Assembly (NCBI GenBank): GCA_022448525.1
Contig: JAKVCX010000007.1
Location: 11,035 to 75,034, forward strand
Reading direction: 5' to 3'
DNA: 64,000 bases
DNA from: Tenacibaculum sp.
Lineage (GTDB): Bacteria; Bacteroidota; Bacteroidia; Flavobacteriales; Flavobacteriaceae
Of the stretch, positions 760 through 25,910 are shown piece by piece. The notes under the pieces were generated by a model that ran no database searches, had not been told where the DNA came from, and was given only the letters and a program-made list of their open reading frames with translations. A program made the position numbers and the translations under genes. Position 1 is the stretch's first letter, and each line of letters starts with the position of its first letter.

Positions 760-833
760 TTAATAACTGATTTTGAGCGAACTTTTGAGGAAAATCTGTA
801 TCTTTTTCCTTGAAAATATTTAAAAGAAAAACT

Positions 834-1925
834 ATGAAAAAGCAACAATGGCTAGTATTATGCTTAGTACTAATGAGCACTTTTGTGTTTGCAACTCGAC
901 AAACTCCAGATCATTTAATCGTTGGAAACGATAGTCTTAAACTACACGTTGGTTGGGGACATCCATCTCCGTTACAAACATATTTTCGTCAAAATAAAAA
1001 TATCAAAAATCCATTTAGAATGATTTCAACTGCAAACTATCGAGGTCATATTGCTACATGGAATATAGAAAACAGTAGGTTTTATTTGATAGGTTTAGAT
1101 GTTGATGGAACAAAACATAAACCAACAGATTTCAGTATTAAATCAGAAAATTCAGGATTTTCCAACGAGAAAAGAGTTTTTGCAGATTGGTTTACTGGCG
1201 TTATTGAATGTCGAAAAATTAATAAAGATTGGAGTGTTGCTTATACTGTGTATTACTATGTAAAGCAAGGAATTGTGGAAAGAGAAGCACAAATTACTAA
1301 TAAAGAGTTAGAAAGATTACAAGAGTTTACCGCAAAAGATACGACCAATACTGAGCTCCTTTCAAAATATTCAATGTTGTATTTGAATCAATCATACATT
1401 TCATTTTACTTCAGATTGTATGAGAGAGAAATGGTGGCTGTTAATGGAAAAAAAGGACAATTATTAGGAAAAGAAGAACGAAGCTTAGTTTTAGATAATT
1501 ACAAAAGTGATTATTCCGATTGGCCATTTAATTGGGAAAGTGAAACGTATGTCGGTGCACCAAATGGAAGTTATGTTATTGAAGATGGTAAATTGTTATT
1601 AGAATCTTTAGAATTATTATCTGGATTAAGTTTTGACGGCCCTGAAAGATCAGAATTGAATATCAAGGAATTTTTTAAAGGCAAAGAGTTTTATAAGGAT
1701 AAGCTTTTTGCTAATTGGGTTTCAGGTGTTTTTATCATCAATTTTGGAAAAGAAGAAAAAGGAGAATTTGGAATGATGCGTTTCAAAGTCAAATCTTCAT
1801 CAATCTATAAAATAGAAAATGGAGTTGTCAAAGAATCGTATGAATTACCTAAGAATAAGAAGGATTTAGAAAATATAGATAACGACCGATTAAAAGACTT
1901 GGTAAAAGAGTTTCAAAATCAGTAG
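834..1925 (+). CDS. Secreted hypothetical protein with an internally duplicated domain
   Basis: ORF 810..1925; ATG at 834 gives a signal peptide (MKKQQWLVLCLVLMSTFVFA); two similar segments ending FADWFTGVI and FANWVSGVF. Confidence 0.75.
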   Translation: MKKQQWLVLCLVLMSTFVFATRQTPDHLIVGNDSLKLHVGWGHPSPLQTYFRQNKNIKNPFRMISTANYRGHIATWNIENSRFYLIGLDVDGTKHKPTDFSIKSENSGFSNEKRVFADWFTGVIECRKINKDWSVAYTVYYYVKQGIVEREAQITNKELERLQEFTAKDTTNTELLSKYSMLYLNQSYISFYFRLYEREMVAVNGKKGQLLGKEERSLVLDNYKSDYSDWPFNWESETYVGAPNGSYVIEDGKLLLESLELLSGLSFDGPERSELNIKEFFKGKEFYKDKLFANWVSGVFIINFGKEEKGEFGMMRFKVKSSSIYKIENGVVKESYELPKNKKDLENIDNDRLKDLVKEFQNQ

Positions 1926-1978
1926 TTCTTGGGGGAATTCAAAAAGTTTAAATTTGTAGTGGTTAAAAAAGAAGGCTA

Positions 1979-3313
1979 ATGAGAAAATTAGGTGTTGTCT
2001 TGTTGTCAACTTTTGTTTTTACAACAAGCATATCAGCTCAAAAAATCAAAGGAGTTATTAAAAACGCAAGTAGTGAAACCAAGTTTTCACTTCGAACAAT
2101 TGGAGATAGAACAATCAAAGAAATTCCTATAGAAAATGGAACTTTTGAAGTTGATAATTTAAATTTAAAGGAAGGATTTTATTTAATTCGAAAAGACAAC
2201 AGTACAGAGCATGTGTATTTAAAACCAAATGATGAACTTATAATTAGTTTCGATGCTCAAAAATTTGACGAAACTTTGTCTTATGCTGGTGAAGGTTCAG
2301 AAGCAAATAATTATTTGGTAATAAAAGGGAAACTAGAGCTGGAACGTAAAAAAGATACGGATAAATTTTACGAAGGAAATGAGCAAGATTATAAAAGGAA
2401 AATTCTTGCCATTGAAAAAGAAATAAAAGATTTATTGGCTAAGGTAAACAGCGAAAGTTTCCGAAAAGAAGAAGCGAAAAATTTAAGATTCGGTTACTTA
2501 TTCGACATTTATAATTACCCGAATATAATGAAGTTCAATTTCGGAAAGAAAGTAACCGTTCCTGAAAGTTTCTTCTCTGAACTAGAAGGTGTGAACTTTG
2601 ATAATGCAGCTAACTATTTAAAATACCCGTACTACAAATATTTAGCAGGAACAAAATGGAAAAAGGATGTTGAGAATGCCGATAGTTTTGAAGAAATGAG
2701 CAGCATAATGGAAAAAATTCGTTCGAAACATATTTTTGTAGATGTGATAATCAACTCTTTTTATCGAATTGCAGATACGCCGGAGAAGTCTAAAATGCAT
2801 TTTAAGTTGATTGAAAAGTTTGTTCCGAATAAGGAATTTATAAAACAGGCGAAGGCAGAATATGAAAAAGTAAAGGCTACATCAAACGGTAATAAAGCAC
2901 CAAATTTCAAGTTTAACGATCGTAATGGAAAGCTAGTTGAATTAACGAATTTCAAAGGAAAATACGTACTCATTGATATCTGGGCGACTTGGTGTGTTCC
3001 ATGTTTAAAGCAAGTACCCTATTTAAAAAAGTTAGAGAAAAAGTATCACGATAAAAACATTGTATTTGTAGGTATTTCAGTTGATGATAAAGACGAATAC
3101 AAATTGTGGAAAGAAACTTTAGACAAGAAGAAAATGGGTGGAGTTCAACTTTTTGCAGACAAGTCTTTTGAGTCTGATTTTGTCGATGCATTTGGTGTCG
3201 CTTCAATTCCAAGGTTTATTTTAATTTCTCCCGAAGGAACTATTGTAGAAAGTCATTTTAGCAAACCATCTCATAAAATTACTGAAGATAAGCTAGATGC
3301 TTTGTTGAAGTAA
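1979..3313 (+). CDS. TlpA/ResA-family thiol-disulfide oxidoreductase with long N-terminal region
   Basis: Signal peptide; C-terminal KGKYVLIDIWATWCVPC redoxin motif. Confidence 0.9.
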   Translation: MRKLGVVLLSTFVFTTSISAQKIKGVIKNASSETKFSLRTIGDRTIKEIPIENGTFEVDNLNLKEGFYLIRKDNSTEHVYLKPNDELIISFDAQKFDETLSYAGEGSEANNYLVIKGKLELERKKDTDKFYEGNEQDYKRKILAIEKEIKDLLAKVNSESFRKEEAKNLRFGYLFDIYNYPNIMKFNFGKKVTVPESFFSELEGVNFDNAANYLKYPYYKYLAGTKWKKDVENADSFEEMSSIMEKIRSKHIFVDVIINSFYRIADTPEKSKMHFKLIEKFVPNKEFIKQAKAEYEKVKATSNGNKAPNFKFNDRNGKLVELTNFKGKYVLIDIWATWCVPCLKQVPYLKKLEKKYHDKNIVFVGISVDDKDEYKLWKETLDKKKMGGVQLFADKSFESDFVDAFGVASIPRFILISPEGTIVESHFSKPSHKITEDKLDALLK

Positions 3314-3349
3314 TTCTAATATTGAAAATGATATTAAATTTTTTGAATA

Positions 3350-4576
3350 ATGAAGATAAACTTCACTTTAGCCTTTCTTTTAGTATCGCTTGTTAGTTTT
3401 GGTCAATTACGAGAATTGGAACCAACTTCTATTGATAAATTAGACCTGAATTTTCAAGGTGAAAAACAGTTTAATGATACCTACAAAAAGGCTGAGAAGG
3501 TATGGGAAAAATTAGGTAATGGAGTTGAATACAACGAGCTATCTGATAAAGAACAACAATTGGTAGATTCTGTAGATGAAACGATGTCAAGTTATTGGGA
3601 TATTATTAGCGACGGTTGCAGCTGGTATTGTGGAGGTGGTCCTAATAAAGTAATTGCTTCAAGTTTTTTAAAACCCCAAGGAAGTACTAATTATAATCCA
3701 GAAAATGCTCATGATTTAAATTATAAAACTGCTTGGGTCGAAGGAGTTTCAGGTTATGGAATAGGAGAATATTTACTTTACAGTTTTGATGCTACTTCAC
3801 CAAGAATTACCGAGATAACTGTTGTGAATGGCTATGTAAAAAGTGAAGCAGCTTGGAAGAATAATTCCAGAGTGAAAAAACTAAAACTTTATATAGATGA
3901 TAAGCCTTTTGCAATTCTGAATTTAAAGGATCTTCGAGGAGCTCAACATTTCCAGTTTGAGCCAATTGGTAGTAGTGAAAGAGAGAATTGGAAAGATTTG
4001 AAATCGAAGCCAAATTGGACCATGAAGTTTGAAATTGCTGAAGCTTACAAAGGAGATAAATATGACGATGTTGTTATTTCTGAAATCTATTTTGACGGAA
4101 TTGATGTACATTGTTTCGCAGCTGGAACTAAAATTCTTTTAGGTGACAAAACATCAAAAAACATTGAGAATTTAAAAGTAGGAGATACGGTTTCTTATAT
4201 GGACTTTGAGACTAATAGTTTAAAATATGCTAAAATTGAAAAATTAGAAAAAGTAACTCATAATGAGTTGGCTATTTATCAATTTGAAAGTGGATTGACA
4301 ATTACGGCAACACCAGATCATCCTTTTAGAATTAGTAATAATAAATGGGCCTCATTACTACCTGAAAAGTCCGCACAGTATAAAGGTTTTGAAAACTGCA
4401 AGAGAATTTCAATAGGAGATGAATTTTTAACAGCTACTGGATATGAAAAGTTAGTTTCTATTGTTTATTCAAATAAAGCACAAGAAACATTTACCATTTC
4501 AAAATTAAGCTCAGGAAATAATTTTATAGCAAACGGATTAGTAGTTGCTGTTGAATCTTTGAGGAAAAGAAAATAA
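3350..4576 (+). CDS. Secreted protein: discoidin-like (NADase-type glycan-binding-like) domain plus C-terminal Hint domain
   Basis: Signal peptide; AWVEG..GIGE..NGY.KS..W..NSRVK pattern; Hint starts at Cys255 (H-CFAAGTKI..IENLKVGD), has TPDH block B and ends NNFIANGLVV. Confidence 0.8.
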   Translation: MKINFTLAFLLVSLVSFGQLRELEPTSIDKLDLNFQGEKQFNDTYKKAEKVWEKLGNGVEYNELSDKEQQLVDSVDETMSSYWDIISDGCSWYCGGGPNKVIASSFLKPQGSTNYNPENAHDLNYKTAWVEGVSGYGIGEYLLYSFDATSPRITEITVVNGYVKSEAAWKNNSRVKKLKLYIDDKPFAILNLKDLRGAQHFQFEPIGSSERENWKDLKSKPNWTMKFEIAEAYKGDKYDDVVISEIYFDGIDVHCFAAGTKILLGDKTSKNIENLKVGDTVSYMDFETNSLKYAKIEKLEKVTHNELAIYQFESGLTITATPDHPFRISNNKWASLLPEKSAQYKGFENCKRISIGDEFLTATGYEKLVSIVYSNKAQETFTISKLSSGNNFIANGLVVAVESLRKRK

Positions 4577-4584
4577 TAGTTGAT

Positions 4585-5118
4585 ATGAAAATTATAAGTT
4601 ACGTTTGGATCATTATTATGCTTCTTTCATTGGCTTTAACAGGAAGATTACTAACTGTTTTTAGTTCAGATTATGAGCTTATTGAAACAGGAAGTATCAT
4701 GGAAAATTTCTGCTTAAATGTTGCTTATATGGCAGGTTGGGTATTGATGTTATCAAATGGAACCTTTGTTAAAACGAAATATTTTAAAATTACGCAGGGA
4801 TTAATGTCAATCCTTATTATTGGAGCACTTTTAAAAATTATGCATTGGACAACATATGCTGATTATTTAATAGTTTTTGGTTTGTTGGGAATTTTAATTG
4901 CTTACAGCATAAGTTTCTACAAAAAACCGATTAAAAAGAGATTAGATTATTTAAAACTTACCTGGGTAATTTTATTACTAAGTAGCACAATTTTAATTTT
5001 ACTACGCGTTTTATCCATGGATTATCGATTGGTAGGAGATGTTGTTTTTTGGATATTATTGTTAGACTTTTGTATCACGAAAACGAACCTTTTTAGTAAA
5101 CAACAGTCCTATTCATAA
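4585..5118 (+). CDS. Multi-pass membrane protein with GldL-N-like motif
   Basis: About 5 hydrophobic segments; IIGALLKIMHW resembles the GldL N-terminal helix motif. Confidence 0.65.
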   Translation: MKIISYVWIIIMLLSLALTGRLLTVFSSDYELIETGSIMENFCLNVAYMAGWVLMLSNGTFVKTKYFKITQGLMSILIIGALLKIMHWTTYADYLIVFGLLGILIAYSISFYKKPIKKRLDYLKLTWVILLLSSTILILLRVLSMDYRLVGDVVFWILLLDFCITKTNLFSKQQSYS

Positions 5119-5187
5119 TCTATTTTAAAAATAGTATCTTTTGGTGTTATTTATGATGATGAACCACGATGTTTAAATGTTAGGTAA

Positions 5188-6552
5188 ATGAAACGAATAC
5201 TCACAATAGTTTTTATAGGCTTAGTAACGGTAATATACGGACAACGATTGTCTTTTAATATTACCAATGATTCTATTAAAAAAGAATTTTATCTAACAAA
5301 AATCAATAATGAAATTGTAGAAACAATTACTATTGAATCTTTCAACTTTAATGTGGATATTAACTTTGATGAAGGTTATTACTTTCTAAAAAAAGAAGAC
5401 GAGAAAACATTGTTATACTTGAAAAGAAACGATGAGTTTTCTATTTCTTTTGACGGAGAAAACTTTTTAAAATCACTTACTTTTTCAGGAAAACGAGGAG
5501 CAGGAAGAAACACCTATTTGCATAGTAAAACTTCAGAGTTGTTAGATCAAGATGGAAATTTGACTACCTTTTACAAGAGAAATTTTTATGAAGGAAATGA
5601 AAATGAGTATTTACGTCGACTCGATCAATTTTACAAAGGTTTTTACGGAACACTTTTCGGAAGTGGATTTGAAGAAAGTTTTGTAAATGAAGAATCCAAG
5701 AATTTGCAATATGGCTATTACTTGGATATTCTAAAATTCGAAAAAGCCAAAAAGCACTATGATTTTAAAGATAGTATTCAGGTTTCAAAAGCGTATTTAG
5801 CACCTTTGAGAAATGTGCATTTCGATAACCAATTGTTTTCTGATCGTTACCAGTCGTATAACGATCTTGCAGTTTTGAAATGGCAAATAGATGTAGAAAA
5901 CACCAATGATTATCCGGTAATGGAAGGAATCATAGCTTCAATTAGAACCGAAGCAATTCAGAAGGCATTATTGGTGCGTTTGTATGAAACAATGACAAAA
6001 GATGAACCAAGTAGAATGCGCGCTTATTTGGATTTTATCAAGGCTTATTCAAAAGACAATCAATTAATTGCAAAAGCGAAAGCAAAGCTTTCAGTTATTA
6101 GACAAGAAGAGGCGGAAAAAAACCTTTCTAGATTTTCATATTTAAACACTAACGGAGAAGAGGTGAAATTAGCCGATTTTAAAGGCAATTATATTTTTCT
6201 ATATCTATGGGCAACTTTTTGTAAAGATTGCGTAAATGAGTTTAAAAACATCGAAAAACTACGAGAAAACTTCGAAGATAAAAACATAGTATTTGTTGGT
6301 GTTTCTGTAGATAAGAAGGAAGATTTCGATAAATGGTCTGGTTTGGTAAAAGAATCAGGAATTAAAACAAGTGCTATGCAATTGTTTTTTGATGATGCAA
6401 GATCAAAAATTATCAAAGCTTATGATATTTCTTCTATTCCGGCCTTAGTGGTATTATCTCTGAAAGGAGAAAAGATGGAAATTGATATCAAAGAAATCGA
6501 TTCAAAGAAAACACAACGTGCTTTGCGAAAACTGTTTGATAAACAAGAGTAA
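5188..6552 (+). CDS. TlpA-family thiol-disulfide oxidoreductase, paralog of 1979..3313
   Basis: KGNYIFLYLWATFCKDC CxxC motif; shared N-region motifs (FYEGNE, EE.KNL..GY..DI). Confidence 0.85.
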   Translation: MKRILTIVFIGLVTVIYGQRLSFNITNDSIKKEFYLTKINNEIVETITIESFNFNVDINFDEGYYFLKKEDEKTLLYLKRNDEFSISFDGENFLKSLTFSGKRGAGRNTYLHSKTSELLDQDGNLTTFYKRNFYEGNENEYLRRLDQFYKGFYGTLFGSGFEESFVNEESKNLQYGYYLDILKFEKAKKHYDFKDSIQVSKAYLAPLRNVHFDNQLFSDRYQSYNDLAVLKWQIDVENTNDYPVMEGIIASIRTEAIQKALLVRLYETMTKDEPSRMRAYLDFIKAYSKDNQLIAKAKAKLSVIRQEEAEKNLSRFSYLNTNGEEVKLADFKGNYIFLYLWATFCKDCVNEFKNIEKLRENFEDKNIVFVGVSVDKKEDFDKWSGLVKESGIKTSAMQLFFDDARSKIIKAYDISSIPALVVLSLKGEKMEIDIKEIDSKKTQRALRKLFDKQE

Positions 6553-6637
6553 ATTACAATTCTTTTAAACAGCGTTCTACTGGTAAGAACGAAATTAATA
6601 ACTATCTTTCGCACTTAAATCTACTAAAAATAGTGCC

Positions 6638-7504
6638 TTGCAAAACAATTATTTAGAGAAACTTCTAGGTTTAATCATAGCAACATTTTTTATCAGTACT
6701 TCTGGTGTGTTAGGAAGATATATAAGTATGCCTTCTGAAGTTATTATTTTCTTCAGAGCTACGTTTGCAATGATCATTTTGTTTGTGTTTTTAAAATACA
6801 AACGTGTTGATTTTAAGTTAAAATCTAGCAAACATAGACTTCCATTTTTAATTGCAGGTGTGTTTATGGGTGTTCATTGGGTAACTTATTTTTATGCATT
6901 AAAACTCTCGAACGTAGCCATTGGAATGTTATCCTTATATACATTTCCAGTGATGACTGCTTTTTTAGAACCTGTTTTTTTAAAGGTAAAATTCAATCCG
7001 ATTTATATTGTCTTGGGAATTTTAGTGTTGTTAGGATTGTATATTTTATCTCCCGATTTCACATTCGAAAGTACAACAGTTCAAGGCATTTTATTCGGAT
7101 TAGTTTCAGCTTTGTGTTATTCGATTCGAATTTTAATTTTAAAGAAATATGTGCACCAGTACAATGGTGTATTACTCATGTTTTATCAAACGATTATTAT
7201 AAGTATTTGCTTGTTCCCTACTCTATTTTTTATGGATACTTCAGGGTTTCAAAGTCAACTGCCATATTTACTATTATTAGCATTTTTAACTACAGCAATT
7301 GGTCATAGTTTAATGGTTTATTCTTTACAGTTTTTCACGGCATCAACCACTAGTATCATCAGTAGCATACAACCTATTTTTGGAATTATTTTGGCTTTCA
7401 TTTTTTTAAGTGAAATACCAACTGTAAATACTTTCTTAGGAGGAGGTTTAATACTAGCAACTGTTGTAATTGAAAGTATTAGAAGTAAGAGAAGTAAAAA
7501 GTAA
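6638..7504 (+). CDS. EamA/DMT family transporter
   Basis: About 10 TM segments in two repeats; DMT-like motifs (YTFPV..AFLEP, QPIFGIILA). Confidence 0.9.
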   Translation: MQNNYLEKLLGLIIATFFISTSGVLGRYISMPSEVIIFFRATFAMIILFVFLKYKRVDFKLKSSKHRLPFLIAGVFMGVHWVTYFYALKLSNVAIGMLSLYTFPVMTAFLEPVFLKVKFNPIYIVLGILVLLGLYILSPDFTFESTTVQGILFGLVSALCYSIRILILKKYVHQYNGVLLMFYQTIIISICLFPTLFFMDTSGFQSQLPYLLLLAFLTTAIGHSLMVYSLQFFTASTTSIISSIQPIFGIILAFIFLSEIPTVNTFLGGGLILATVVIESIRSKRSKK

Positions 7505-7515
7505 ATTCTAATAAA

Positions 7516-8601
7516 TTATTTGAATCTACGTAAAGAAACATCTTCATAGTTTCTTCTAACAAAATCCAAAGCACTTTCTAAAACTTCGCCCATTCCTTTA
7601 CTTTTTTTGAAAGAGATATCGCTTGTGAAATCGAAAATTTCCATTTTTAATTTCTCGATATTTTCATTGGTAGAAATCTCATCATTCTTCATGCAAAAAA
7701 TTAACTCATCGATTCTATCTTCTGAAGATAAAATACGTTTTGCTACAATCGAACGCTCTTCAAGTTTATATTGTTCAATGGAATTTTCTTGAAGCTTATC
7801 TCCTACCAGTTTTACCATTGGATAATTTTCTTTAAAAAACTGAGGATAGTACACTTTAAATTTTCCTTCAAAGCATTGTTGATCGAAATCAATCGCCCTT
7901 ATTTTATAAACAACATTATCAAAATCGTGTGTAGGAACAATTACGTAATTGTACGATCTCATATCTCCTAACAAACGAATCATACAACGCTCATTAAATT
8001 TTACAAACTCCTTCGCAATTTGAGATTTTTGAGATTCAGTACAGTCTGGTAAAATTTCTTTAATAAAAGTATCACCTGGGATTCCTGCAATATGTTCTTC
8101 AATTAAAGTATCCTTGTAAACAAGAAAGTTTAAATTATAGGGAGATAAAATATGTTCTAATTCTAAACCATACACTCTTGAAGCATCGGTTTTTTTTACA
8201 TAGAAGTATGTGTAATTATCATTTAAAACATTACGGACTTTTACACGAAATGGTTTTGAGTTTCCAAACGTACAAAAATCGACACAGTCGATATTTAAAT
8301 ATTGAATATTGTCCTCGTTTCCATTCGAATGCAGAATGTTATAAACTTTCTTTAAACTAAGATCTATTTCCTCTCTGTCAAACTCCGAATAGTATACACG
8401 AACCCACAAAGTATCTTCATCGTTTTTATCATACACAACAACCGACCCCTGAAAGCGTAATAAATCCTCGTAAAAAATTGGAATTTTAATGTTCCTGCTG
8501 TGTTCAATCAAGTATTCATTTAAAAAATGATTGATGGGAAACGCAGGTTTCTTTTTAGACATTAATTTTTCTTCGGAATGCATGAGTGGGTCTTTTTTCA
8601 A
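7516..8601 (-). CDS. Hypothetical protein with kinase-like (PI3/4K- or HipA-like) motifs
   Basis: YVKK, GLELE, LGDMRSYN, AIDFD; true start may be ATG at 8583 or 8562. Confidence 0.7.
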   Translation of the reverse strand: MKKDPLMHSEEKLMSKKKPAFPINHFLNEYLIEHSRNIKIPIFYEDLLRFQGSVVVYDKNDEDTLWVRVYYSEFDREEIDLSLKKVYNILHSNGNEDNIQYLNIDCVDFCTFGNSKPFRVKVRNVLNDNYTYFYVKKTDASRVYGLELEHILSPYNLNFLVYKDTLIEEHIAGIPGDTFIKEILPDCTESQKSQIAKEFVKFNERCMIRLLGDMRSYNYVIVPTHDFDNVVYKIRAIDFDQQCFEGKFKVYYPQFFKENYPMVKLVGDKLQENSIEQYKLEERSIVAKRILSSEDRIDELIFCMKNDEISTNENIEKLKMEIFDFTSDISFKKSKGMGEVLESALDFVRRNYEDVSLRRFK

Positions 8602-8666: not shown

Positions 8667-9587
8667 ATGAAAAACTATAAAATTACCATTCCTGAGCCTT
8701 GTCATGAAAATTGGCATCAAATGACTTCAGTGGAGAAAGGACGATTTTGTAAATCTTGTTCAAAAACAGTGATTGATTTTACTAAGAAATCTCCAAAACA
8801 AATTCAAGAATACTTGCAACTAAATCAAGGAAAACGAGTTTGTGGGCATTTTTATAAAAAACAATTAGACAGTATAGTTGTTGAATTACCTATTACTGTT
8901 TTTGAGAGAGAATTATCATTTCAAAAGATGTTTGTTTTATTGATTTTAGTGGTAATGGGAACCAGTTTGTTGAGCTGTAAAACGGAAGGCAAAACTCAGA
9001 AAATTGAGAAAGTAATAATGAGAGATTCTATGGAAACATCGGAAAAAACCATAGACAGTTTGTTCTCAATTATACAAAAGGATTCAACTATAAAGAAGAA
9101 TGAAAAGGTTATTAAAATACCAAAAAATGATAGCATTATAACAGTTTTAGGAGCACTACCTCCACCACCTAAAACTACGGGAATTGTAGTTGAAGTCACA
9201 GGTGAACCAGTTCTTGAAGAATATGACGCTCCTCATTATTTTTCACTTATTGATAAAGTTCCAAGGTTTAAAGGTGTAGTGAAAAGAGTTAATGAATCTT
9301 GGTCAGAAAACTTTGAAAGAAAGATGAAGGAGTTTGTAGTTAAAAAACTTCATGCCGAGTCATATCAAAATCTTGGATTATCTTCTGGGAAAAGGAAAAT
9401 ATTCACTCAAATTGTTATAGATAATTTAGGTAATATTGAAGAAGTAAGAGTGAGAGCTCCTCATCCAAAATTAAGAGAAGAAATACGATCAATACTGATG
9501 AACCTTCCTCAATTCATTCCTGGAGAAAATGAGAATAGACGAGTAAAAGTCAAGTATAATTTACCTATAAATTTGGTGATTGACTAA
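8667..9587 (+). CDS. TonB C-terminal domain protein with Cys-rich N-terminus
   Basis: PEPCHENW..GRFCKSCSK N-terminus, Pro-rich linker, C-terminal PQFIPG..VKVKYNLPI. Confidence 0.75.
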   Translation: MKNYKITIPEPCHENWHQMTSVEKGRFCKSCSKTVIDFTKKSPKQIQEYLQLNQGKRVCGHFYKKQLDSIVVELPITVFERELSFQKMFVLLILVVMGTSLLSCKTEGKTQKIEKVIMRDSMETSEKTIDSLFSIIQKDSTIKKNEKVIKIPKNDSIITVLGALPPPPKTTGIVVEVTGEPVLEEYDAPHYFSLIDKVPRFKGVVKRVNESWSENFERKMKEFVVKKLHAESYQNLGLSSGKRKIFTQIVIDNLGNIEEVRVRAPHPKLREEIRSILMNLPQFIPGENENRRVKVKYNLPINLVID

Positions 9588-19202: not shown

Positions 19203-22200
19203 ATGAGAAACAAGTACACTGCAAAGTTACTGCTTTCTGCTGGTATGCTAGTTTTTGCTAGTAATGCCTTTGCTCAAAGTAAAGAGCAGATCCAAAAAAT
19301 TCGTAGTGAATACGATTTGGTGAAGCTTCAAACAATTCAAAAGAATTTACAAACTAAGGAAAATCTTCAAAAAAAGGAAGCAATGAGAATTGCTCAACAA
19401 AAAGGATGGAAAACTACCATCAAAAAAGAAGATGGAACTTTTATGGAATTACAACGTGTAGTTAATGGAAAGCCAATTTATTATACTACTTTCAACGTTG
19501 ATGCTGCAAAATCTACAAGAACAGATCATTTACATTCAGGTGGTTCATTAGGTTTAAACTTAATGGGACAAGGATTAACTGCCAACGTATGGGATGGTGG
19601 AGGAACACGTAACACTCACCAAGAATTTGATGGTGCTGGTGGAAATAATCGTGTTACTACAATTGACGGTTCTACATTAAACGGAAACAGTTTTCATGCT
19701 CAGCACGTTACAGGAACAATTGTTGCTTCTGGAGTTGTTGCGAATGCAAAAGGTATGGCGCCTCATGCAAAAGCGAGAACGGCTGACTGGAATAATGATA
19801 AGTCTGAGGCAACTACAGAGACTGGAAACGGAATGATTATTTCTAACCACTCTTACGGTTTTGCTTTTAGAAATCAATTTGGACAAGTACAGCTACCACA
19901 AAACTATTTTGGAGGATATATCGAAGAATCTCGTGATTGGGATGAAATTTTATTTAATGCTCCAAACTACTTAATGGTTGTTGCTGCTGGTAACGATGGA
20001 AATGATAATACAGCTAACCAAAACCCAACTGGAGGATCTGGATGGGACAAGTTAACTGGGCACTCAACTTCTAAGAACAACCTAGTAGTTGCAAATGCTC
20101 AAGATGCTAACATTGATGCAAATGGAAATTTAGTTTCTGTTTCTATCAATAGTTCAAGTAGTGAAGGACCAACGGATGATATGCGTATTAAACCGGATAT
20201 CACTGGTAACGGTACTGGAGTTTATTCTACTTATGATAATAGTGATAGTGCTTATAATTCTATTACAGGTACTTCTATGGCATCTCCAAACGTTGCTGGA
20301 TCGTTATTGTTATTACAACAACACTACGGAAATTTAAATAGTGGTGGATTAATGAGAGCTGCTACATTAAAAGGTTTAGCTCTTCATACTGCTGATGACG
20401 CTGGTGCTGCTGGACCAGATGCTGTTTTCGGGTGGGGATTATTAAACACTAAGAGAGCTGCTCAAACTATTACAGCTAATGGAAATGGCTCTAAGATTGA
20501 AGAATTAACTTTAAATAGTGGTCAATCTTACACAATTACTGTTGATTCTGATGGAACTAGTCCATTATTAGCTTCTATTTCTTGGACAGATAGACCAGGT
20601 ACTGCTAATAGTACTGTAAACTCTACTACTCCAGTTTTAGTAAATGATTTAGATATTAGAGTAACTAAAGGAGGAACTACATATTTTCCTTATGAGTTAA
20701 CTGGGCCAACTACAAGTGCTCAACAAGATAATAATGTTGATCCTTATGAAAGAGTTGATGTAAACGGAGCATCAGGAACTTATACAATTACTGTAACTAA
20801 CAAAGGAACTTTAGTTGGTGGAAGCCAAGCATTTTCTTTAATTGTAACAGGTGTTACAGGGACTCCTGCAGTTTGTAACGCGACTACCCCAACAGGAGTT
20901 GGTGTAACTGGAGTTTCTCAAACAGGAGCTACAGTAAACTGGTCAGCTGTTGCTGGAACAACTTATGATGTAAGATATCGTCAATCAGGAACAACTTCTT
21001 GGACTGTTAATGCAGTTACTGGAACTTCTTCTTCTTTATCTGGTTTAACAGCTGGAACTGAATACCAAGTACAAGTTCGTAGTAAGTGTCCTGATGGAAC
21101 AAATTCATCTTACAGTACAACAACAACATTTACAACGTCTGCGCCAACACCATGTGAATCATTACCATATGCTGAAAGTTTTGAAAGCAACGACGGATGG
21201 ACTCAAGTTTCTGGAGATGACGGAGATTGGGTAAGAGATAGTGGAGGAACACCTTCTTCAACTACTGGACCAAGTTCAGGAGCAGATGGATCTTTCTACA
21301 TGTTCTTAGAGGCTTCAACTAATAATAGTGCAGGACAAATTGGAAACAACGCTAGTGCAATTTTAGAAAGTGGATGTTTCGATTTATCTGGAAAGTCTGA
21401 GGCTACATTTGCGTTCAAAAACCACATGTATGGAACTAACATGGGATCTTTAACGGCTCAAGTTTCTACTAATGATGGATCAACTTGGACAAATGTTTGG
21501 ACGCTTTCAGGAAACCAAGGAAACCAATGGAATTCAGTTTCTGTTAATTTAAATAGTTATGTAGGGTCAACAATCAAATTAAGATTAGTTGGTACAACAG
21601 GAAATGGATGGAGAAGTGATGTTGCAATTGACGATATCGAAGTTACTGCTGTTGATGCAGGATCTGATACGCAAGCGCCTTCAGCGCCATCTAATGTTCA
21701 AGCTTCGAGTATTACACAAACTACAGCTACGGTAAGCTGGAATGCTTCTACTGATAATGTAGGTGTTACAGGATACGAAGTATTCCAAGGTTCTTCTAGT
21801 TTAGGAACTGTTACAGGAACTTCTGCTAATTTAACAGGATTAACAGCAGGAACTTCTTATACAATTAATGTAAGAGCTCAAGATGCTGCTGGAAACGTTT
21901 CTAACGCAGGTTCTGTTACATTTACAACTGATAGTGATAACCCAGCTCCAACATATTGTACTTCTAGCGGAAGCAGAACTACTTATGAGTGGATTGATAA
22001 TGTAGAATTAGGTGGAATTACAAATGCTACTGGTGCAGGAAGCGGATATTCTGACTTTACTAACTTAGTTGGTAACTTAGCGCAAGGAAGTACTAATACT
22101 ATGATTGTAAGTGCTGGATTCAGTGGTTCTTCTTATACAGAGCACTGGGCAGTTTGGATTGACTTTAACCAAGATGGAACTTTTGCTGATAGTGAAAAAG

Positions 22201-22673
22201 TAGTTTCTGGATCTTCTTCTAGTGCAAACAACTTATCTGCTACTGTTAATGTGCCTTCTAACGCTGTTTTAGGTCAAACGAGAATGCGTGTATCTATGAA
22301 GTATAACGCTGCTCAAACAGCTTGTGAGAGCTTCGGAGATGGAGAAGTAGAAGATTATACTATTAATATTACATCTTCTTCAAACGGTTTATTTACAACC
22401 TTTAATAATACAAATGCTGATGTATTAGGAAATGAAGCAGCAACTACATTTACTGCTTATCCAAATCCAGCTAAAGATTTTATTCAAGTGAAGTCTAGCA
22501 ACAGAAATGTTGGATTAACTTCATATAGAATTATAAATACAATTGGTCAAACTGTTCAATCTGGAGAGTTAACTAATGATAGAATTAATGTTTCGAAACT
22601 TGGCTTAGGGATGTATATCTTAGAGGTTAATGACGGACAAAAATTATTCAACACTCAATTGGTTAAAAGATAG
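19203..22673 (+). CDS. T9SS-secreted S8 subtilase with FN3, MAM, FN3, GEVED and CTD
   Basis: Catalytic triad VWDGG / HAQHVTGT / GTSMASP; GEVEDY; C-terminal YPNP..GMYIL. Confidence 0.93.
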   Translation: MRNKYTAKLLLSAGMLVFASNAFAQSKEQIQKIRSEYDLVKLQTIQKNLQTKENLQKKEAMRIAQQKGWKTTIKKEDGTFMELQRVVNGKPIYYTTFNVDAAKSTRTDHLHSGGSLGLNLMGQGLTANVWDGGGTRNTHQEFDGAGGNNRVTTIDGSTLNGNSFHAQHVTGTIVASGVVANAKGMAPHAKARTADWNNDKSEATTETGNGMIISNHSYGFAFRNQFGQVQLPQNYFGGYIEESRDWDEILFNAPNYLMVVAAGNDGNDNTANQNPTGGSGWDKLTGHSTSKNNLVVANAQDANIDANGNLVSVSINSSSSEGPTDDMRIKPDITGNGTGVYSTYDNSDSAYNSITGTSMASPNVAGSLLLLQQHYGNLNSGGLMRAATLKGLALHTADDAGAAGPDAVFGWGLLNTKRAAQTITANGNGSKIEELTLNSGQSYTITVDSDGTSPLLASISWTDRPGTANSTVNSTTPVLVNDLDIRVTKGGTTYFPYELTGPTTSAQQDNNVDPYERVDVNGASGTYTITVTNKGTLVGGSQAFSLIVTGVTGTPAVCNATTPTGVGVTGVSQTGATVNWSAVAGTTYDVRYRQSGTTSWTVNAVTGTSSSLSGLTAGTEYQVQVRSKCPDGTNSSYSTTTTFTTSAPTPCESLPYAESFESNDGWTQVSGDDGDWVRDSGGTPSSTTGPSSGADGSFYMFLEASTNNSAGQIGNNASAILESGCFDLSGKSEATFAFKNHMYGTNMGSLTAQVSTNDGSTWTNVWTLSGNQGNQWNSVSVNLNSYVGSTIKLRLVGTTGNGWRSDVAIDDIEVTAVDAGSDTQAPSAPSNVQASSITQTTATVSWNASTDNVGVTGYEVFQGSSSLGTVTGTSANLTGLTAGTSYTINVRAQDAAGNVSNAGSVTFTTDSDNPAPTYCTSSGSRTTYEWIDNVELGGITNATGAGSGYSDFTNLVGNLAQGSTNTMIVSAGFSGSSYTEHWAVWIDFNQDGTFADSEKVVSGSSSSANNLSATVNVPSNAVLGQTRMRVSMKYNAAQTACESFGDGEVEDYTINITSSSNGLFTTFNNTNADVLGNEAATTFTAYPNPAKDFIQVKSSNRNVGLTSYRIINTIGQTVQSGELTNDRINVSKLGLGMYILEVNDGQKLFNTQLVKR

Positions 22674-22703
22674 AAACCCTTCAATTTTACTTAAACCAAT
22701 AAT

Positions 22704-22729
22704 AAAACCCGAGCTTTTGCTCGGGTTTT
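22704..22729 (+). terminator. Intrinsic terminator
   Basis: AAAACCCGAGC-TTTT-GCTCGGGTTTT. Confidence 0.9.
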
Positions 22730-22814
22730 TGCATTTTTTGACGGTATTTTTTTTGCAATCCATAATAATATTTTAACATAAAATTTAACATAAGCTTGCA
22801 ATTCATACAAAAAT

Positions 22815-22856
22815 TTAACAAAAATCTTAAATTATGTTAACGTTGAAGTATATTTG
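22815..22856 (+). promoter_or_regulatory. Promoter -7 box with upstream TTAA-N8-TTAA palindrome
   Basis: TATATTTG 22849-22856; TTAACAAAAATCTTAA 22815-22830. Confidence 0.5.
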
Positions 22857-22955
22857 GAATCCTTGATTACCCCTTCTGAAAATTCTTCAACAAGAGCCCT
22901 AATAAGTTGCGGGAAATCAAATAGTTTAACGAAAACCATTAAAACCCTTCAAAGA

Positions 22956-25631
22956 ATGAAAAAAATTACTTTCTTATTTCTTTTATTAACGGGAGTTGTT
23001 TTTTCTCAGCAAAAGAGAAATTGTCACTCGATGAACAATCTTGAGTTCAGACAACAAAAGGACCCGGCCATCAAGCAAAGAATGATGGAAATTGAAAAGT
23101 TTACTCAGAATAAACTTTTACAAATGCAAAGCCTTCAGAAAAAGATAGATGGTGAAATTATTAAGATTCCTGTAGTTGTACACGTAATCTATAGTAATTC
23201 ACAAGAAAATATTAGTGAAGCTCAAATCCAATCTCAAATTGATGTATTAAACGAAGACTTCAGAAGAACGAATTCTGATGCTAATAACAAATGGTCTCAA
23301 GCAGCAGATACACAAATTGAGTTTGCACTAGCAGCAATCGATCCTAACGGAAACCCTACTTCTGGTATCACAAGAAAGTCTTCTACAAGAACTTCTTGGG
23401 GAACAAACGATGCAATGAAGAGTGCTTCTCAAGGAGGAGTTAGTCCTTGGGATACATCTGAATATTTAAACATGTGGGTATGTAATATCGGTGGAGGAAT
23501 TTTAGGATATGCACAATTTCCAGGAGGTAGTGCTGCTACTGACGGAGTTGTAATGAGTCCACAATATTTTGGTAGTTCAGATAAAGGTTCTGGATTTTAT
23601 TTATCAGCTCCTTTTGATAAAGGTAGAACTACTACTCACGAAGTTGGTCACTTCTTGAACTTACGTCACATTTGGGGTGATGGTGGATGTTCAGTTGATG
23701 ATTTTGTTTCTGATACACCTACATCTGATGCGGCAAATTACGGGTGTGCAACAGGTCATACGTCTTGTGGATCTGAGGATATGGTAGAGAACTTCATGGA
23801 TTATTCTGATGATTCTTGTATGAACTTATATACAGAAGGACAAAAGAATAGAATGAGAGCTGTTTTAGAAGCTGGAGGAGTTAGAAGAAGTTTAGCTTTA
23901 TCTGATAAATTTTCACCAGCAGTATGTAATGCAACTACACCAACAGGAGTTAGTGTATCTGGAGTTTCGTCTTCAGAAGCTACAGTTTCTTGGAATGATG
24001 TTTCAGGAGCGACTTATGATGTAAGATTCCGTCCGGCTGGAACAACTTCTTGGACAGTAAATGCTGTTTCTGGAACTTCGACTACATTATCTGGTTTATC
24101 AGCTACAACTCAATATCAAGTACAAGTAAGAAGTAAGTGTTCTTCTGGAAGTTCTTCTTATAGCTCTACAGTTAGCTTTACAACTACTGAAGTACAATTA
24201 AACTACTGTGATTCTAAAGGTAACAACGTAAACGACGAGTATATCAGTAGAGTTGCTATTGGATCAATTAACAATACATCTGGAAATGGAAACGGATATT
24301 CTGATTTCACTTCTCAATCTACTACATTAGCAAAATCAGCTTCTGCTAGTATTACAATTACACCAACTTGGACAGGAACTGTTTATAGCGAAGGTTATGC
24401 AGTATTTATCGATTATAACCAAGATGGAGATTTCGCGGATAGCGGAGAAACTGTTTGGACACAATCTGCTACACAAAATACACCAGTTTCTGGATCGTTT
24501 ACAGTTCCAGCTGGAGCTGCTGAAGGAGCAACTAGAATGCGTGTATCTATGAAATATAATGGAGTACCTACTTCATGTGAAACATTCTCTTACGGAGAAG
24601 TAGAAGATTATACAGTTGTTATTGGAGCGTCTGCACCAGATACACAAGCGCCTTCTACACCTTCAAATGTGCAAGCTTCGGCTGTAACACAAACAACAGC
24701 TACAGTAAGCTGGAATGCGTCTTCTGATAACGTAGGAGTTACAGGATATGAAGTATTTAGAGGATCTACAAGCTTAGGAACTGTAACAGGAACTTCAGCT
24801 AACTTAACAGGATTATCAGCAAATACTTCTTACACAGTTTCAGTAAGAGCTAATGATGCTGCTGGAAACCAATCAAACGCTGGATCAGTTACATTCACAA
24901 CATTAAGTAATCAAGTTTCTTACTGTACTTCTAGCGGAAGCAGAACTACATACGAATGGATTGACAATGTTGAATTAGGAGGAATTGCAAATGCTACAGG
25001 AGCAGGAAGTGGATATTCTGACTTTACTAGTCAAGTTGGAACATTAGCACAAGGAAGTTCAAATACTATGATTGTAAGTGCTGGATTTAGAAGCTCTTCT
25101 TATACTGAGTATTGGGCAGTATGGATTGACTTCAACCAAGATGGAACATTCTCTGCAAGTGAGAAAGTAGTTTCTGGATCTTCTTCTAGTGCAAATAACT
25201 TATCTGCTACAGTAAATGTACCTTCAAATGCAGTATTAGGTAATACTAGAATGCGTGTATCTATGAAGTATAACGCAGCGCAAACAGCTTGTGAAAACTT
25301 TGGAGATGGAGAAGTAGAAGATTATACAATTAATATTACAAGCTCAGCTCGTCAAGACTTAGTGTCTTCAGATGCTGATGCATTAGGAAATGAATCTGCA
25401 ATAGATTTATTAGCATTCCCTAACCCGACAACTAACTTTGTTCAGGTAAGGTTATCTAATAGAACTGCTGAAATATCTTCATATAGTATTGTGAATACAA
25501 TCGGACAAACAGTTCAAAAAGGTGAACTTACTAATGGAACAATTAACGTTTCTAATCTATCATTAGGAATGTACATTTTAGAAGTAAATGATGGTCAAAA
25601 ATCATTTAAAATTAAATTATTGAAGAAATAA
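22956..25631 (+). CDS. T9SS-secreted M43 (pappalysin/ulilysin-like) metalloprotease with FN3, GEVED, FN3, GEVED and CTD
   Basis: Cys-switch-like RNC, HEVGHFLNLRH, Met-turn NFMDY; ATG at 22956 gives a signal peptide. Confidence 0.92.
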   Translation: MKKITFLFLLLTGVVFSQQKRNCHSMNNLEFRQQKDPAIKQRMMEIEKFTQNKLLQMQSLQKKIDGEIIKIPVVVHVIYSNSQENISEAQIQSQIDVLNEDFRRTNSDANNKWSQAADTQIEFALAAIDPNGNPTSGITRKSSTRTSWGTNDAMKSASQGGVSPWDTSEYLNMWVCNIGGGILGYAQFPGGSAATDGVVMSPQYFGSSDKGSGFYLSAPFDKGRTTTHEVGHFLNLRHIWGDGGCSVDDFVSDTPTSDAANYGCATGHTSCGSEDMVENFMDYSDDSCMNLYTEGQKNRMRAVLEAGGVRRSLALSDKFSPAVCNATTPTGVSVSGVSSSEATVSWNDVSGATYDVRFRPAGTTSWTVNAVSGTSTTLSGLSATTQYQVQVRSKCSSGSSSYSSTVSFTTTEVQLNYCDSKGNNVNDEYISRVAIGSINNTSGNGNGYSDFTSQSTTLAKSASASITITPTWTGTVYSEGYAVFIDYNQDGDFADSGETVWTQSATQNTPVSGSFTVPAGAAEGATRMRVSMKYNGVPTSCETFSYGEVEDYTVVIGASAPDTQAPSTPSNVQASAVTQTTATVSWNASSDNVGVTGYEVFRGSTSLGTVTGTSANLTGLSANTSYTVSVRANDAAGNQSNAGSVTFTTLSNQVSYCTSSGSRTTYEWIDNVELGGIANATGAGSGYSDFTSQVGTLAQGSSNTMIVSAGFRSSSYTEYWAVWIDFNQDGTFSASEKVVSGSSSSANNLSATVNVPSNAVLGNTRMRVSMKYNAAQTACENFGDGEVEDYTINITSSARQDLVSSDADALGNESAIDLLAFPNPTTNFVQVRLSNRTAEISSYSIVNTIGQTVQKGELTNGTINVSNLSLGMYILEVNDGQKSFKIKLLKK

Positions 25632-25659
25632 TAGATGTCCTTACCCTATTATTGATGGT

Positions 25660-25686
25660 AAAACCCGAGCAATTTGCTCGGGTTTT
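25660..25686 (+). terminator. Intrinsic terminator
   Basis: AAAACCCGAGC-AATTT-GCTCGGGTTTT. Confidence 0.9.
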
Positions 25687-25769
25687 TTACTTTTTTAACA
25701 TTTTCTTTGGTAATTCATAACCTAAAAATAACAATTCATTGCGTTTTTTAATGCAAACTATACAAATCC

Positions 25770-25811
25770 TTAACGTATTCGTTAAAAAAAACGATCGTTC
25801 CTGTATATTTG
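25770..25811 (+). promoter_or_regulatory. Promoter -7 box with upstream perfect palindrome
   Basis: TTAACGTATTCGTTAA 25770-25785; TATATTTG 25804-25811. Confidence 0.5.
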
Positions 25812-25910
25812 GCACCCCTATAAATCCTCATTCATAAATTCTCCAAAAAGAACCGAATTGGTTATAGGATGTGTAATAGTTTCAAATTTTCATTAAAAAG
25901 CCCTAAACAA

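Follow-up and report, generated by a model that had tools for sequence, protein, structure and literature searches.

We analysed a 64,000-nt stretch of a Tenacibaculum sp. genome (assembly GCA_022448525.1, contig JAKVCX010000007.1), here called the window, and in it an open reading frame (ORF) at 3350-4576 (+) that opens with ATG and encodes 408 residues. The product, which we refer to as the lectin-Hint protein, opens with a signal peptide and continues with a CSWYC motif and a NADase_transloc/discoidin domain; from Cys255 onward it is a Hint domain (Table 1). The ORF is a real gene. Its homologues number 1613 at E <= 1e-5, the best 120 of which are about 405 residues long with 53-97% identity and the identical architecture, and a scan of one genome per GTDB species finds relatives in 426 species, essentially all of them Bacteroidota.

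The N terminus reads as a signal peptide of the Sec/signal peptidase I type, and residues 2-17 are helical in a full-length AlphaFold2 (AF2) model (predicted local distance difference test, pLDDT, of 84; built on a 72-sequence alignment). The predicted cleavage exposes Gln19, which is at least 90% conserved across the family and fits the Q-rule reported for the signal peptidase I substrates of Bacteroidetes (PMC5837995). There are good grounds for expecting that the lectin-Hint protein is exported through Sec. Export by the type IX secretion system (T9SS) was rejected because Pfam and NCBIfam scans of the protein give no match to the T9SS C-terminal sorting domain (Por_Secre_tail / TIGR04183), which three proteases encoded in the window do carry. 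Between the signal peptide and the CSWYC motif lies a region (aa 19-88) in which the model places helices at 35-56 and 66-74, and which matches no Pfam or NCBIfam family.

Residues 92-249 can be assigned to a named glycan-binding-type (discoidin) family, with glycan binding itself putative: they match PF25302 (NADase_transloc) at 189.5 bits (E 4.6e-56, cutoff 27) over profile positions 1-146 of 146 and NF047619 (NADase_discoid) at 145.2 bits (cutoff 38) over positions 1-130 of 130, and their top-residue frequency in the family alignment is 0.81. A preliminary description of this DNA, made from its letters and translated ORFs, had called this part of the protein glycan-binding-like, which is right at the level of the family. 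The domain is thus a full-length, high-scoring member of the Pfam and NCBIfam families of the translocation domain of SPN, the NAD+ glycohydrolase of Streptococcus pyogenes (PF25302; PDB 7JI1), to which its sequence match is weak. In SPN the translocation domain is followed by a NADase toxin domain and the partner is streptolysin O, whereas the lectin-Hint protein has no NADase domain, carries the Hint domain in that place and opens its lectin domain with the CSWYC motif.

Table 1. Features of the lectin-Hint gene (positions in the window, residues of the protein)
Feature	Positions	Strand	Evidence or remark
Sec/signal peptidase I-type signal peptide, aa 1-18, MKINFTLAFLLVSLVSFG	3350..3403	+	n-region Lys, hydrophobic core, no lipobox Cys
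Poorly conserved N-terminal region, aa 19-88	3404..3613	+	mean top-residue frequency 0.58; mostly helical in the model
GCSWYCGGG motif, aa 89-97; Cys90 (3617-3619), Cys94 (3629-3631)	3614..3640	+	most conserved stretch, top-residue frequency 0.96
NADase_transloc / NADase_discoid F5/8-type-C (discoidin-like) putative glycan-binding domain, aa 92-249	3623..4096	+	PF25302, NF047619
Junction GIDVH/CF, aa 250-256; predicted scissile bond His254 (4109-4111) / Cys255 (4112-4114)	4097..4117	+	top-residue frequency 0.95
Complete Hint (BIL-like) domain, aa 255-401, 147 residues	4112..4552	+	AF2 domain model, Foldseek, family profile
His304, additional His in the long Hint beta-hairpin	4259..4261	+	His in 252/253 sequences
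Block B motif T321-P-D-H324 (TxxH)	4310..4321	+	T321 and H324 invariant; D323 97% conserved
AXH-like segment after block B, aa 326-362, F..W333.SL.P338..S.QY344KGF	4325..4435	+	Pfam AXH; alignments with ataxin-1 AXH and BIL2
A400-V401 at the intein His-Asn positions, Glu402 at +1	4547..4555	+	relatives align ...ANGxLVHN-K/E here
Seven-residue tail ESLRKRK and stop, no C-extein	4553..4576	+	poorly conserved except E402

The Hint domain and its relatives

The preliminary description had set the start of the Hint domain at Cys255 and listed a series of motifs, and we find both as described: the codon is TGT, with FDGIDVH immediately before it and CFAAGTKILLGD from it onward, and CF..GT.I, IENLKVGD and TPDH are all present ahead of the ending FIANGLVVAVESLRKRK. 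The lectin domain directly abuts the Hint domain, with no linker, and in the family alignment the junction residues G250, D252, V253 and C255 do not vary, with H254 at 97% conservation. That the C-terminal region should model as a Hint fold was a point on which that description had staked its reading, and an AF2 model of the domain alone (pLDDT 91.1; predicted template modelling score, pTM, 0.85) has the fold complete. Searched against PDB with Foldseek, this model returns a top 50 made up entirely of Hint domains, namely inteins, bacterial intein-like (BIL) domains or Hedgehog C-terminal domains (HhC); the full-length model gives the same ranking, except that ranks 42 and 50 are taken by non-Hint structures, which probably match the discoidin part. 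Template-modelling (TM) scores by query and target are 0.85 and 0.87-0.89 for Tetrahymena BIL2 (6TMM/6Y75; root-mean-square deviation 2.1 Å), 0.74 and 0.85 for a BIL of C. thermocellum (2LWY), 0.72 and 0.80 for the Ssp DnaB mini-intein, and 0.68 and 0.74 for HhC (1AT0). As modelled, the C-terminal domain is a genuine and complete Hint fold.

Profile searches, which the preliminary description had recommended, gave a divided answer. TIGR01445 (intein_Nterm) matches the C-terminal part above its cutoff (27.3 vs 24.5 bits), while five Pfam models of the Hint clan, all aligning from residue 254/255, stay below threshold at 16-25 bits; Pfam Hint (PF01079) reaches 22.9 bits under a threshold of 29.7, Hint_2, which we take to be the Pfam model built around B-type BILs, scores lowest of the Hint models with 16 bits vs a gathering threshold of 28.4, and models of the pre-toxin Hint (PT-HINT) type match weakly.

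The catalytic residues are conserved almost throughout the family. Cys255, His304, Thr321, His324 and Glu402 are found together in 249 of 253 aligned members (30-97% identity), in which the top-residue frequency of the Hint domain as a whole is 0.77. In inteins, the TxxH of block B assists the N-S acyl shift (PMC10663303), and the residues for this shift (Cys1 and the block-B Thr and His) are essentially invariant across the 253 members. We did not adopt an equivalence of His304 with either His48 of BIL2 or Asp46 of Hedgehog, since the BIL2 zinc ligand H48 aligns 2 residues upstream of it in the profile alignment and the Hedgehog alignment is weak (E 0.035).

At the other end of the domain, the preliminary description had noted the lack of a terminal His-Asn and of essentially any C-extein, and this is what we see, here and in the whole family. 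The family consensus ends ...TYTISKLSSGDNFIANGLIVG[VIT]EEL followed by 0-5 residues, with His-Asn absent throughout, E402 essentially invariant at +1 and no Cys, Ser or Thr as +1 nucleophile. The lectin-Hint protein, with its Glu402 at +1 and seven residues after the Hint domain, accordingly lacks the features by which an intein would be recognised.

An exhaustive search with the Hint domain only, over 1.84 billion cluster representatives, retrieved 2290 relatives at E <= 1e-3, many of which are large prokaryotic proteins in which Hint domains of this AXH-like subtype are repeated head to tail, with 2-7 copies per protein. Examples are P0122, P0123, P0126 (Nanoarchaeota metagenome-assembled genome (MAG) MBU0757110.1), P0146, P0155 and P0127, a protein of 4119 aa from Mucilaginibacter angelicae (WP_377022980.1). 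No array copy has lost Cys1 or T-x-[DEN]-H, and where one copy meets the next the sequence reads ...ANGxLVHN-K-x(0-4)-CFxAGT, with His-Asn intact, which makes the preceding Hint domain the N-extein of each. We found no description of such tandem Hint arrays in the literature searched; their purpose might be that of self-dismantling polyproteins, or the generation of multiple thioesters.

The terminal copies grade from LVHN-E through LVTN-E, LVHS-E and IVHF-E to IVG[VIT]-E, the last being the lectin-Hint family. Since the sister domains keep His-Asn and the terminal copies are graded in this way, the lectin-Hint branch has specifically lost Asn cyclisation while keeping everything that the N-S acyl shift requires, and for such a domain established Hint chemistry predicts thioester formation at the N-terminal side only. 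N-terminal-only autoprocessing through a His254-Cys255 thioester is, on this sequence evidence, the most likely function. The preliminary description had proposed the same N-terminal thioester chemistry; it is the natural expectation with Cys1, Thr and His kept and the Asn-cyclisation motif gone, and what falls away from its argument, which leaned also on CSWYC and the flanking TlpA genes, is the part on TlpA.

Two aspects of the relationship go beyond the preliminary description: in Pfam the domain falls into AXH, and the domains most closely related to it are Hint domains of the BIL type in which His-Asn is intact. Pfam AXH (PF08517) scores 39.9 bits vs a gathering threshold of 33 and is the sole Pfam model above threshold in the C-terminal part, and a profile of 17 family Hint sequences finds the AXH domains of ataxin-1 (E 1.2e-8) and HBP1 (9e-7) alongside BIL2 (E 1.3e-8). 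Common to the family Hint, AXH and BIL2 are block A and, after block B, the segment PF...W-x-S-x-x-P...S-Q, in which W333 and P338, and Y344 beyond it, are invariant in the family. The AXH domains of ataxin-1 and HBP1 (PDB 4J2J, 1OA8, 1V06) share block A as F.xG..I.L..G....iEdLk..D and the later segment as PF...GW.S..P..S.Q. AXH is, however, a nuclear, non-catalytic module of about 120 residues that aligns to profile positions 7-112 of 159, covering about two thirds of the fold, with Leu and Tyr at the positions of Thr321 and His324; it has no Cys1, no TxxH and no C-terminal third, all of which the family Hint possesses, and AXH structures are absent from the top 50 Foldseek matches. We therefore rejected filing the domain as AXH, given a complete, catalytic-type Hint domain of 147 residues on one side and a shorter domain that has lost the block-B Thr and His on the other. 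The tandem-array relatives score 64-137 bits on Pfam AXH and up to 162 bits on Pfam Hint, and, taken with the scores of the family, this indicates that the Pfam AXH model recognises a Hint subtype. AXH is then best read as a truncated, catalytically dead relative of this subtype, which suggests that the eukaryotic AXH derives from a BIL-type Hint domain. We found no paper or discussion linking AXH and Hint in the literature searched; in CATH, AXH may already be classed under the Hint topology.

BIL2, from the BUBL1 polyubiquitin-like locus of Tetrahymena thermophila, is the best structural match and also the best Hint sequence match, its profile alignment spanning positions 7-150 (the C. thermocellum BIL reaches E 3.8e-4). 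It shares with the family Cys1, the block-B His, the W-x-S-x-x-P after block B and the ...NF.ANG... core of block G. In BIL2 the thioester is resolved by an external amine and the N-extein is passed to a Lys epsilon-amine, with zinc modulating the reaction (PMC8616854). BIL2 is eukaryotic and cytoplasmic, lies between two ubiquitin-like domains and keeps its terminal Asn (N143), whereas the lectin-Hint protein is bacterial and predicted to be exported, carries its Hint domain at the extreme C terminus with Ala-Val (Gly-Val in the family) for His-Asn, and has a lectin as N-extein. BILs at large, whether A-type (for example that of C. thermocellum, 2LWY) or B-type, are Hint domains of secreted or variable bacterial proteins that cleave themselves rather than splice, and B-type BILs have no C-terminal motif and undergo N-terminal cleavage (PMC7765530). 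The sister domains of the family have an A-type-BIL-like His-Asn with a non-nucleophilic +1 residue; the lectin-Hint family itself lacks that His-Asn and has the missing C-terminal motif in common with B-type BILs; its score on Hint_2 is low. BILs have been described from hypervariable, non-conserved proteins, in contrast to the fixed and well-conserved lectin-Hint architecture. Hedgehog (HhC/Hog) resembles the family in having a C-terminal Hint domain with Cys1 and TxxH, no Asn cyclisation and an exported N-terminal domain, which is released through a thioester resolved by an external nucleophile. It differs in its sterol/adduct recognition region, of which the family Hint has no counterpart, in Asp46, for which the weak alignment yields no equivalent, in its -1 residue (Gly, against His in the lectin-Hint protein), and in phylum and cargo.

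The Cys90/Cys94/His254 trio

The two most conserved stretches of the protein, GCSWYCGGG at the opening of the lectin domain and GIDVHCF at the junction, are tied to each other by covariation. Both cysteines of the former and the His at position -1 of the latter are present in 217 of the 253 sequences, neither the Cys pair nor the His in 33, and 3 are mixed. On an approximate neighbor-joining (NJ) tree, computed with the three trio columns masked and with a divergent clade sampled, the variants without Cys/Cys/His form 23 separate groups. By parsimony the Cys pair changes about 20 times and the His about 21 times, and the three residues are lost jointly and independently some 20 times. The replacement is often Asp/Asn/Leu, with Asp90/Asn94/Leu254 arising about 9 times, and the nearest neighbour of many variants is a Cys/Cys/His sequence, at an identity of 0.70-0.83, rather than another variant. 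A single-clade origin of the covariation was rejected on the 23 groups and the Cys/Cys/His nearest neighbours, with the divergent clade included. A scan of the alignment columns for a fourth covarying ligand found none, the next best difference being 0.64 (at the adjoining Gly95) vs 0.90-0.95 for the trio.

All trio variants retain the Hint catalytic residues, which places the trio outside core catalysis, as an accessory unit at the cleavage site that, to judge from these counts, evolves as one. The repeated, concerted swap of two Cys and one His for residues that are not ligands is a pattern typical of metal sites, and in discoidin folds the N terminus lies next to the C terminus; the trio speaks for a metal or redox site located at the scissile bond. 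As no fourth column covaries, a fourth ligand would be an invariant residue, Cys255 being the obvious candidate, or water. The alternative role for the trio would be that of a thiol/disulfide switch involving Cys255. The trio may thus gate the Hint reaction. The preliminary description had taken CSWYC as a sign of redox dependence; the covariation with the -1 His does appear to tie the motif functionally to the cleavage site, and it is the neighbouring TlpA genes that have to be dropped as evidence.

Precedents exist for control of this kind. In P. abyssi, a disulfide that joins Cys1 of the MoaA intein to a Cys of the N-extein blocks the intein, zinc can occupy the active sites of inteins and inhibits several of them (PMC10663303), and in BIL2 zinc repositions the block-B His and activates the reaction (PMC8616854). 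In redox- and metal-conditional inteins (P. abyssi MoaA; the Zn-inhibited RecA, DnaB and Prp8 inteins), an N-extein Cys or an active-site metal controls step 1, as we propose for the trio; these are, however, true splicing inteins in cytoplasmic enzymes, whereas the site suggested here would be made of residues 160 positions upstream together with the -1 residue, and covariation is what suggests it.

Proposed processing and its alternatives

On balance we lean, by a modest degree, towards reading the lectin-Hint protein as an exported precursor in which a thioester between Cys255 and His254 leads to a single-turnover separation of lectin and Hint that depends on the trio's metal or redox state. 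The Sec-exported precursor would consist of a discoidin-type lectin part (aa 19-254) fused without a linker to a BIL/BUBL-like Hint domain (aa 255-401), whose Cys255 would form the thioester with His254. Because there is neither His-Asn nor a +1 nucleophile, this thioester could be resolved only by an external nucleophile (or water), and the default outcome would be a single cut yielding a lectin of ~27 kDa that ends in His254 and a Hint fragment of ~17 kDa. Cys90, Cys94 and His254 would act as one unit beside the scissile bond, most simply as a Cys2-His metal site with Cys255 or water as the fourth ligand, or alternatively as a thiol/disulfide switch, and with either role the reaction would depend on metal or redox conditions in the envelope.

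Several points weigh against this reading. The conservation of the Hint domain (0.77) comes near that of the lectin (0.81), beyond what a throw-away protease would need, and hints at a further role, for instance with an acceptor or partner. The Asp and His of the class-1 intein F block are not evident, TYTISKLSSGDNF standing in place of the D...H pattern. The proximity of Cys90 and Cys94 to His254 and Cys255 is deduced from covariation and the adjacency of discoidin termini, with pLDDT below 50 at residues 88-91, and the counts of trio loss hang on an approximate NJ tree. In the literature searched we found no paper on the family and no experiment showing that a member is processed.

A role with an acceptor is what a Hedgehog- or BUBL-like ligation would entail, an alternative that we regard as possible though rather unlikely: a specific envelope nucleophile would attack the thioester, and the lectin would become covalently anchored through the His254 carboxyl, with the Hint domain serving as a "sortase-free" attachment device. 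Candidate nucleophiles would be an amine or hydroxyl of peptidoglycan, of a lipid (e.g., phosphatidylethanolamine or lipopolysaccharide) or of a lectin-bound glycan. The location of the Hint domain at the extreme C terminus without Asn, as in Hedgehog, is in its favor, as is the transfer of the N-extein to a lysine epsilon-amine by BIL2, the closest solved structure (PMC8616854). The Hint surface is also conserved beyond the needs of cleavage (the AXH-like segment, H304, W333, P338, Y344 and E402), which is compatible with acceptor binding or activation, and Glu402, at +1 and beside Cys1 in the Hint fold, could be a general base. Yet W333 and P338 are conserved in array copies with intact His-Asn as well, and so may be structural; the seven residues after the Hint domain leave no region resembling one for sterol or adduct recognition, no residue could be matched in the weak Hedgehog alignment to the nucleophile-activating Asp46, and no acceptor-related gene is linked in the related loci. 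If, instead, the Hint domain were non-catalytic, the protein would stay intact, the domain would serve for binding or dimerisation like the AXH of ataxin-1 and HBP1, and Cys255 would be a ligand in a structural Cys3-His metal site. For this speak the match to Pfam AXH, alone above threshold, the ataxin-1 AXH match in the profile search, the overall conservation of the Hint domain, and an oxidising periplasm that disfavors a free Cys1 thiol. We nevertheless consider it quite improbable, since Cys255, Thr321 and His324 are invariant in the ~33 sequences that have no trio, so that Cys255 is not kept merely as a trio partner, AXH has lost the block-B Thr and His and covers only part of the fold, and it is active inteins, BILs and HhC, not AXH, that make up the top 50 structural matches.

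The coupling of the CxxxC to the -1 residue might also be explained by an internal capture of the thioester, in which the acyl group would pass to Cys94 or Cys90, the Hint domain would be released and a reactive thiolactone lectin would later react covalently with a target that it has bound, much as thioester-domain adhesins and thioester proteins of the complement type do. With adjacent discoidin termini the Cys thiols could reach the His254 carbonyl, but the proposal is purely speculative, the Asp/Asn/Leu lineages keep the Hint catalytic residues, which makes the Cys pair dispensable for the Hint domain, and two Cys covarying with a His are more suggestive of a metal site; we consider it very improbable. 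Least credible of all is a remnant of a mobile intein or the PT-HINT of a polymorphic toxin. Weak matches to Intein_splicing, Hom_end_hint and PT-HINT-type models, and automatic database names such as "Hint domain-containing homing endonuclease" or "Intein", point that way. The protein has, however, no endonuclease domain, C-extein, terminal Asn or +1 nucleophile, no toxin domain downstream and no conserved immunity-like neighbour, and its position and architecture are fixed in >1600 homologues (45-97% identity), which is the opposite of sporadic mobile insertion. The intein, homing-endonuclease and PT-HINT toxin readings were rejected on architecture.

Set against the conditional cleavage that we prefer, a bolder proposal, which we put forward as doubtful, is that the family constitutes a device for covalent attachment in the envelope of the Fibrobacteres-Chlorobi-Bacteroidetes (FCB) group, self-contained and gated by metal or redox state, and that its Hint subtype is the prokaryotic ancestor-type of the eukaryotic AXH. 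Here the trio would release Cys255, and the thioester at the lectin C terminus would be captured by peptidoglycan, a lipid, a bound glycan or, transiently, the protein's own Cys pair. If true, prokaryotes would possess in this device an equivalent of Hedgehog lipidation and BUBL conjugation. Transferring Hint domains are known from animals (cholesterol modification by Hedgehog) and from a ciliate (BUBL conjugation); to our knowledge, no bacterial envelope protein family has been shown to transfer by means of a Hint domain. The co-lost trio gives a concrete starting point for asking how, in an oxidising compartment, a Hint reaction could be switched, with conditional self-cleaving tags as a possible use, and the family bridges at sequence level the BIL-type Hint and the AXH of the spinocerebellar-ataxia protein ataxin-1, suggesting an origin for the latter. 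The domain types, the types of chemistry and the automatic database entries of the family were known already. New here are the fixed architecture of a lectin with a putatively N-terminal-only Hint domain, conserved across the FCB group, its derivation from His-Asn-bearing BIL-like domains, the co-evolving Cys-Cys-His unit and the sequence bridge to AXH.

Distribution and genomic context

Hosts of the family include Flavobacteriales (many of them Aquimarina), Bacteroidales/Marinilabiliales, Porphyromonas, Cytophagales, Saprospiraceae and Chitinophagales, and members also come from termite-gut lineages and from Bacteroidales of the rumen. MAGs bearing the labels Chitinispirillales, Fibromonadaceae and Deferribacteraceae (P0285, P0290, P0320) emerged from a second search and may represent a true spread beyond Bacteroidota; members on short MAG contigs labelled Lachnospiraceae, Smithella and Bacillales (loci L025, L027, L031) are probably mis-binned. 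The names that members bear in databases are automatic and, besides the two intein-related ones given above, include "NADase-type glycan-binding domain-containing protein" and, in UniRef for some members, "AXH domain-containing protein". Variant architectures comprise NADase_transloc-Hint-TonB_C (P0208, 546 aa, with the Hint domain internal and without His-Asn), YARHG-...-Hint (P0240, P0265) and MORN_2-NADase_transloc-Hint (P0148); the fusion of the Hint cassette to TonB_C, YARHG and MORN fits an envelope location.

In the window, the gene is part of a cluster of six co-directional genes (810-7504) separated by gaps of 8-85 nt with no terminator-like sites, and local co-transcription is possible. 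On either side, at 1979-3313 (+) and 5188-6552 (+), are genes for paralogous proteins of ~450 aa that combine a ~300-aa N-terminal extension without assignment with a C-terminal TlpA/ResA-like thioredoxin fold, having WCxxC in the first and FCxxC in the second. Between the lectin-Hint gene and the second of these, 8 nt past the target stop, 4585-5118 (+) encodes a 177-aa multi-pass membrane protein with a GldL_N-like segment (26 bits), homologues of which (39-47% identity) are encoded just upstream of the lectin-Hint gene in only 5 loci, all of Aquimarina (L046, L049, L051, L052, L066); this linkage looks lineage-specific. The cluster begins with a 371-aa ORF at 810-1925 (+) that has a signal-peptide-like start, no Pfam or NCBIfam match and no homologue near the target gene in 84 loci.

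The preliminary description had counted the flanking TlpA genes as evidence for redox dependence. When the window's neighbours were searched by tblastn, a TlpA-like gene lay within 5 kb of the lectin-Hint gene in only 3 of 84 loci; in three distant genomes the neighbours are unrelated, and when the neighbouring ORFs were all clustered against one another, no partner family recurred in more than 8 of 85 loci, a 15-locus cluster being an antisense ORF within the lectin-Hint gene itself. With so few loci and no conserved neighbour, the link to a TlpA/redox operon was rejected as evidence, and the lectin-Hint gene is functionally stand-alone, with no conserved operon partner.

In the window as a whole, an Rfam scan finds one tRNA only, and two ORFs beyond the cluster, of 361 aa at 7516-8601 (-) and 306 aa at 8667-9587 (+), have no match in a Pfam scan. 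Three consecutive large secreted proteases are encoded at 19203-28454 (+), one of Peptidase_S8 and two of Peptidase_M43, with MAM, fn3 and GEVED domains and the T9SS C-terminal sorting domain, in a region of raised GC content (0.35-0.39 vs ~0.31 elsewhere). A 1055-aa ORF at 49851-53018 (-) joins an FGGY carbohydrate (glycerol-type) kinase to a DAO/DAO_C domain of the glycerol-3-phosphate oxidase/dehydrogenase type, and two consecutive steps of glycerol catabolism thus appear to be combined in one polypeptide.

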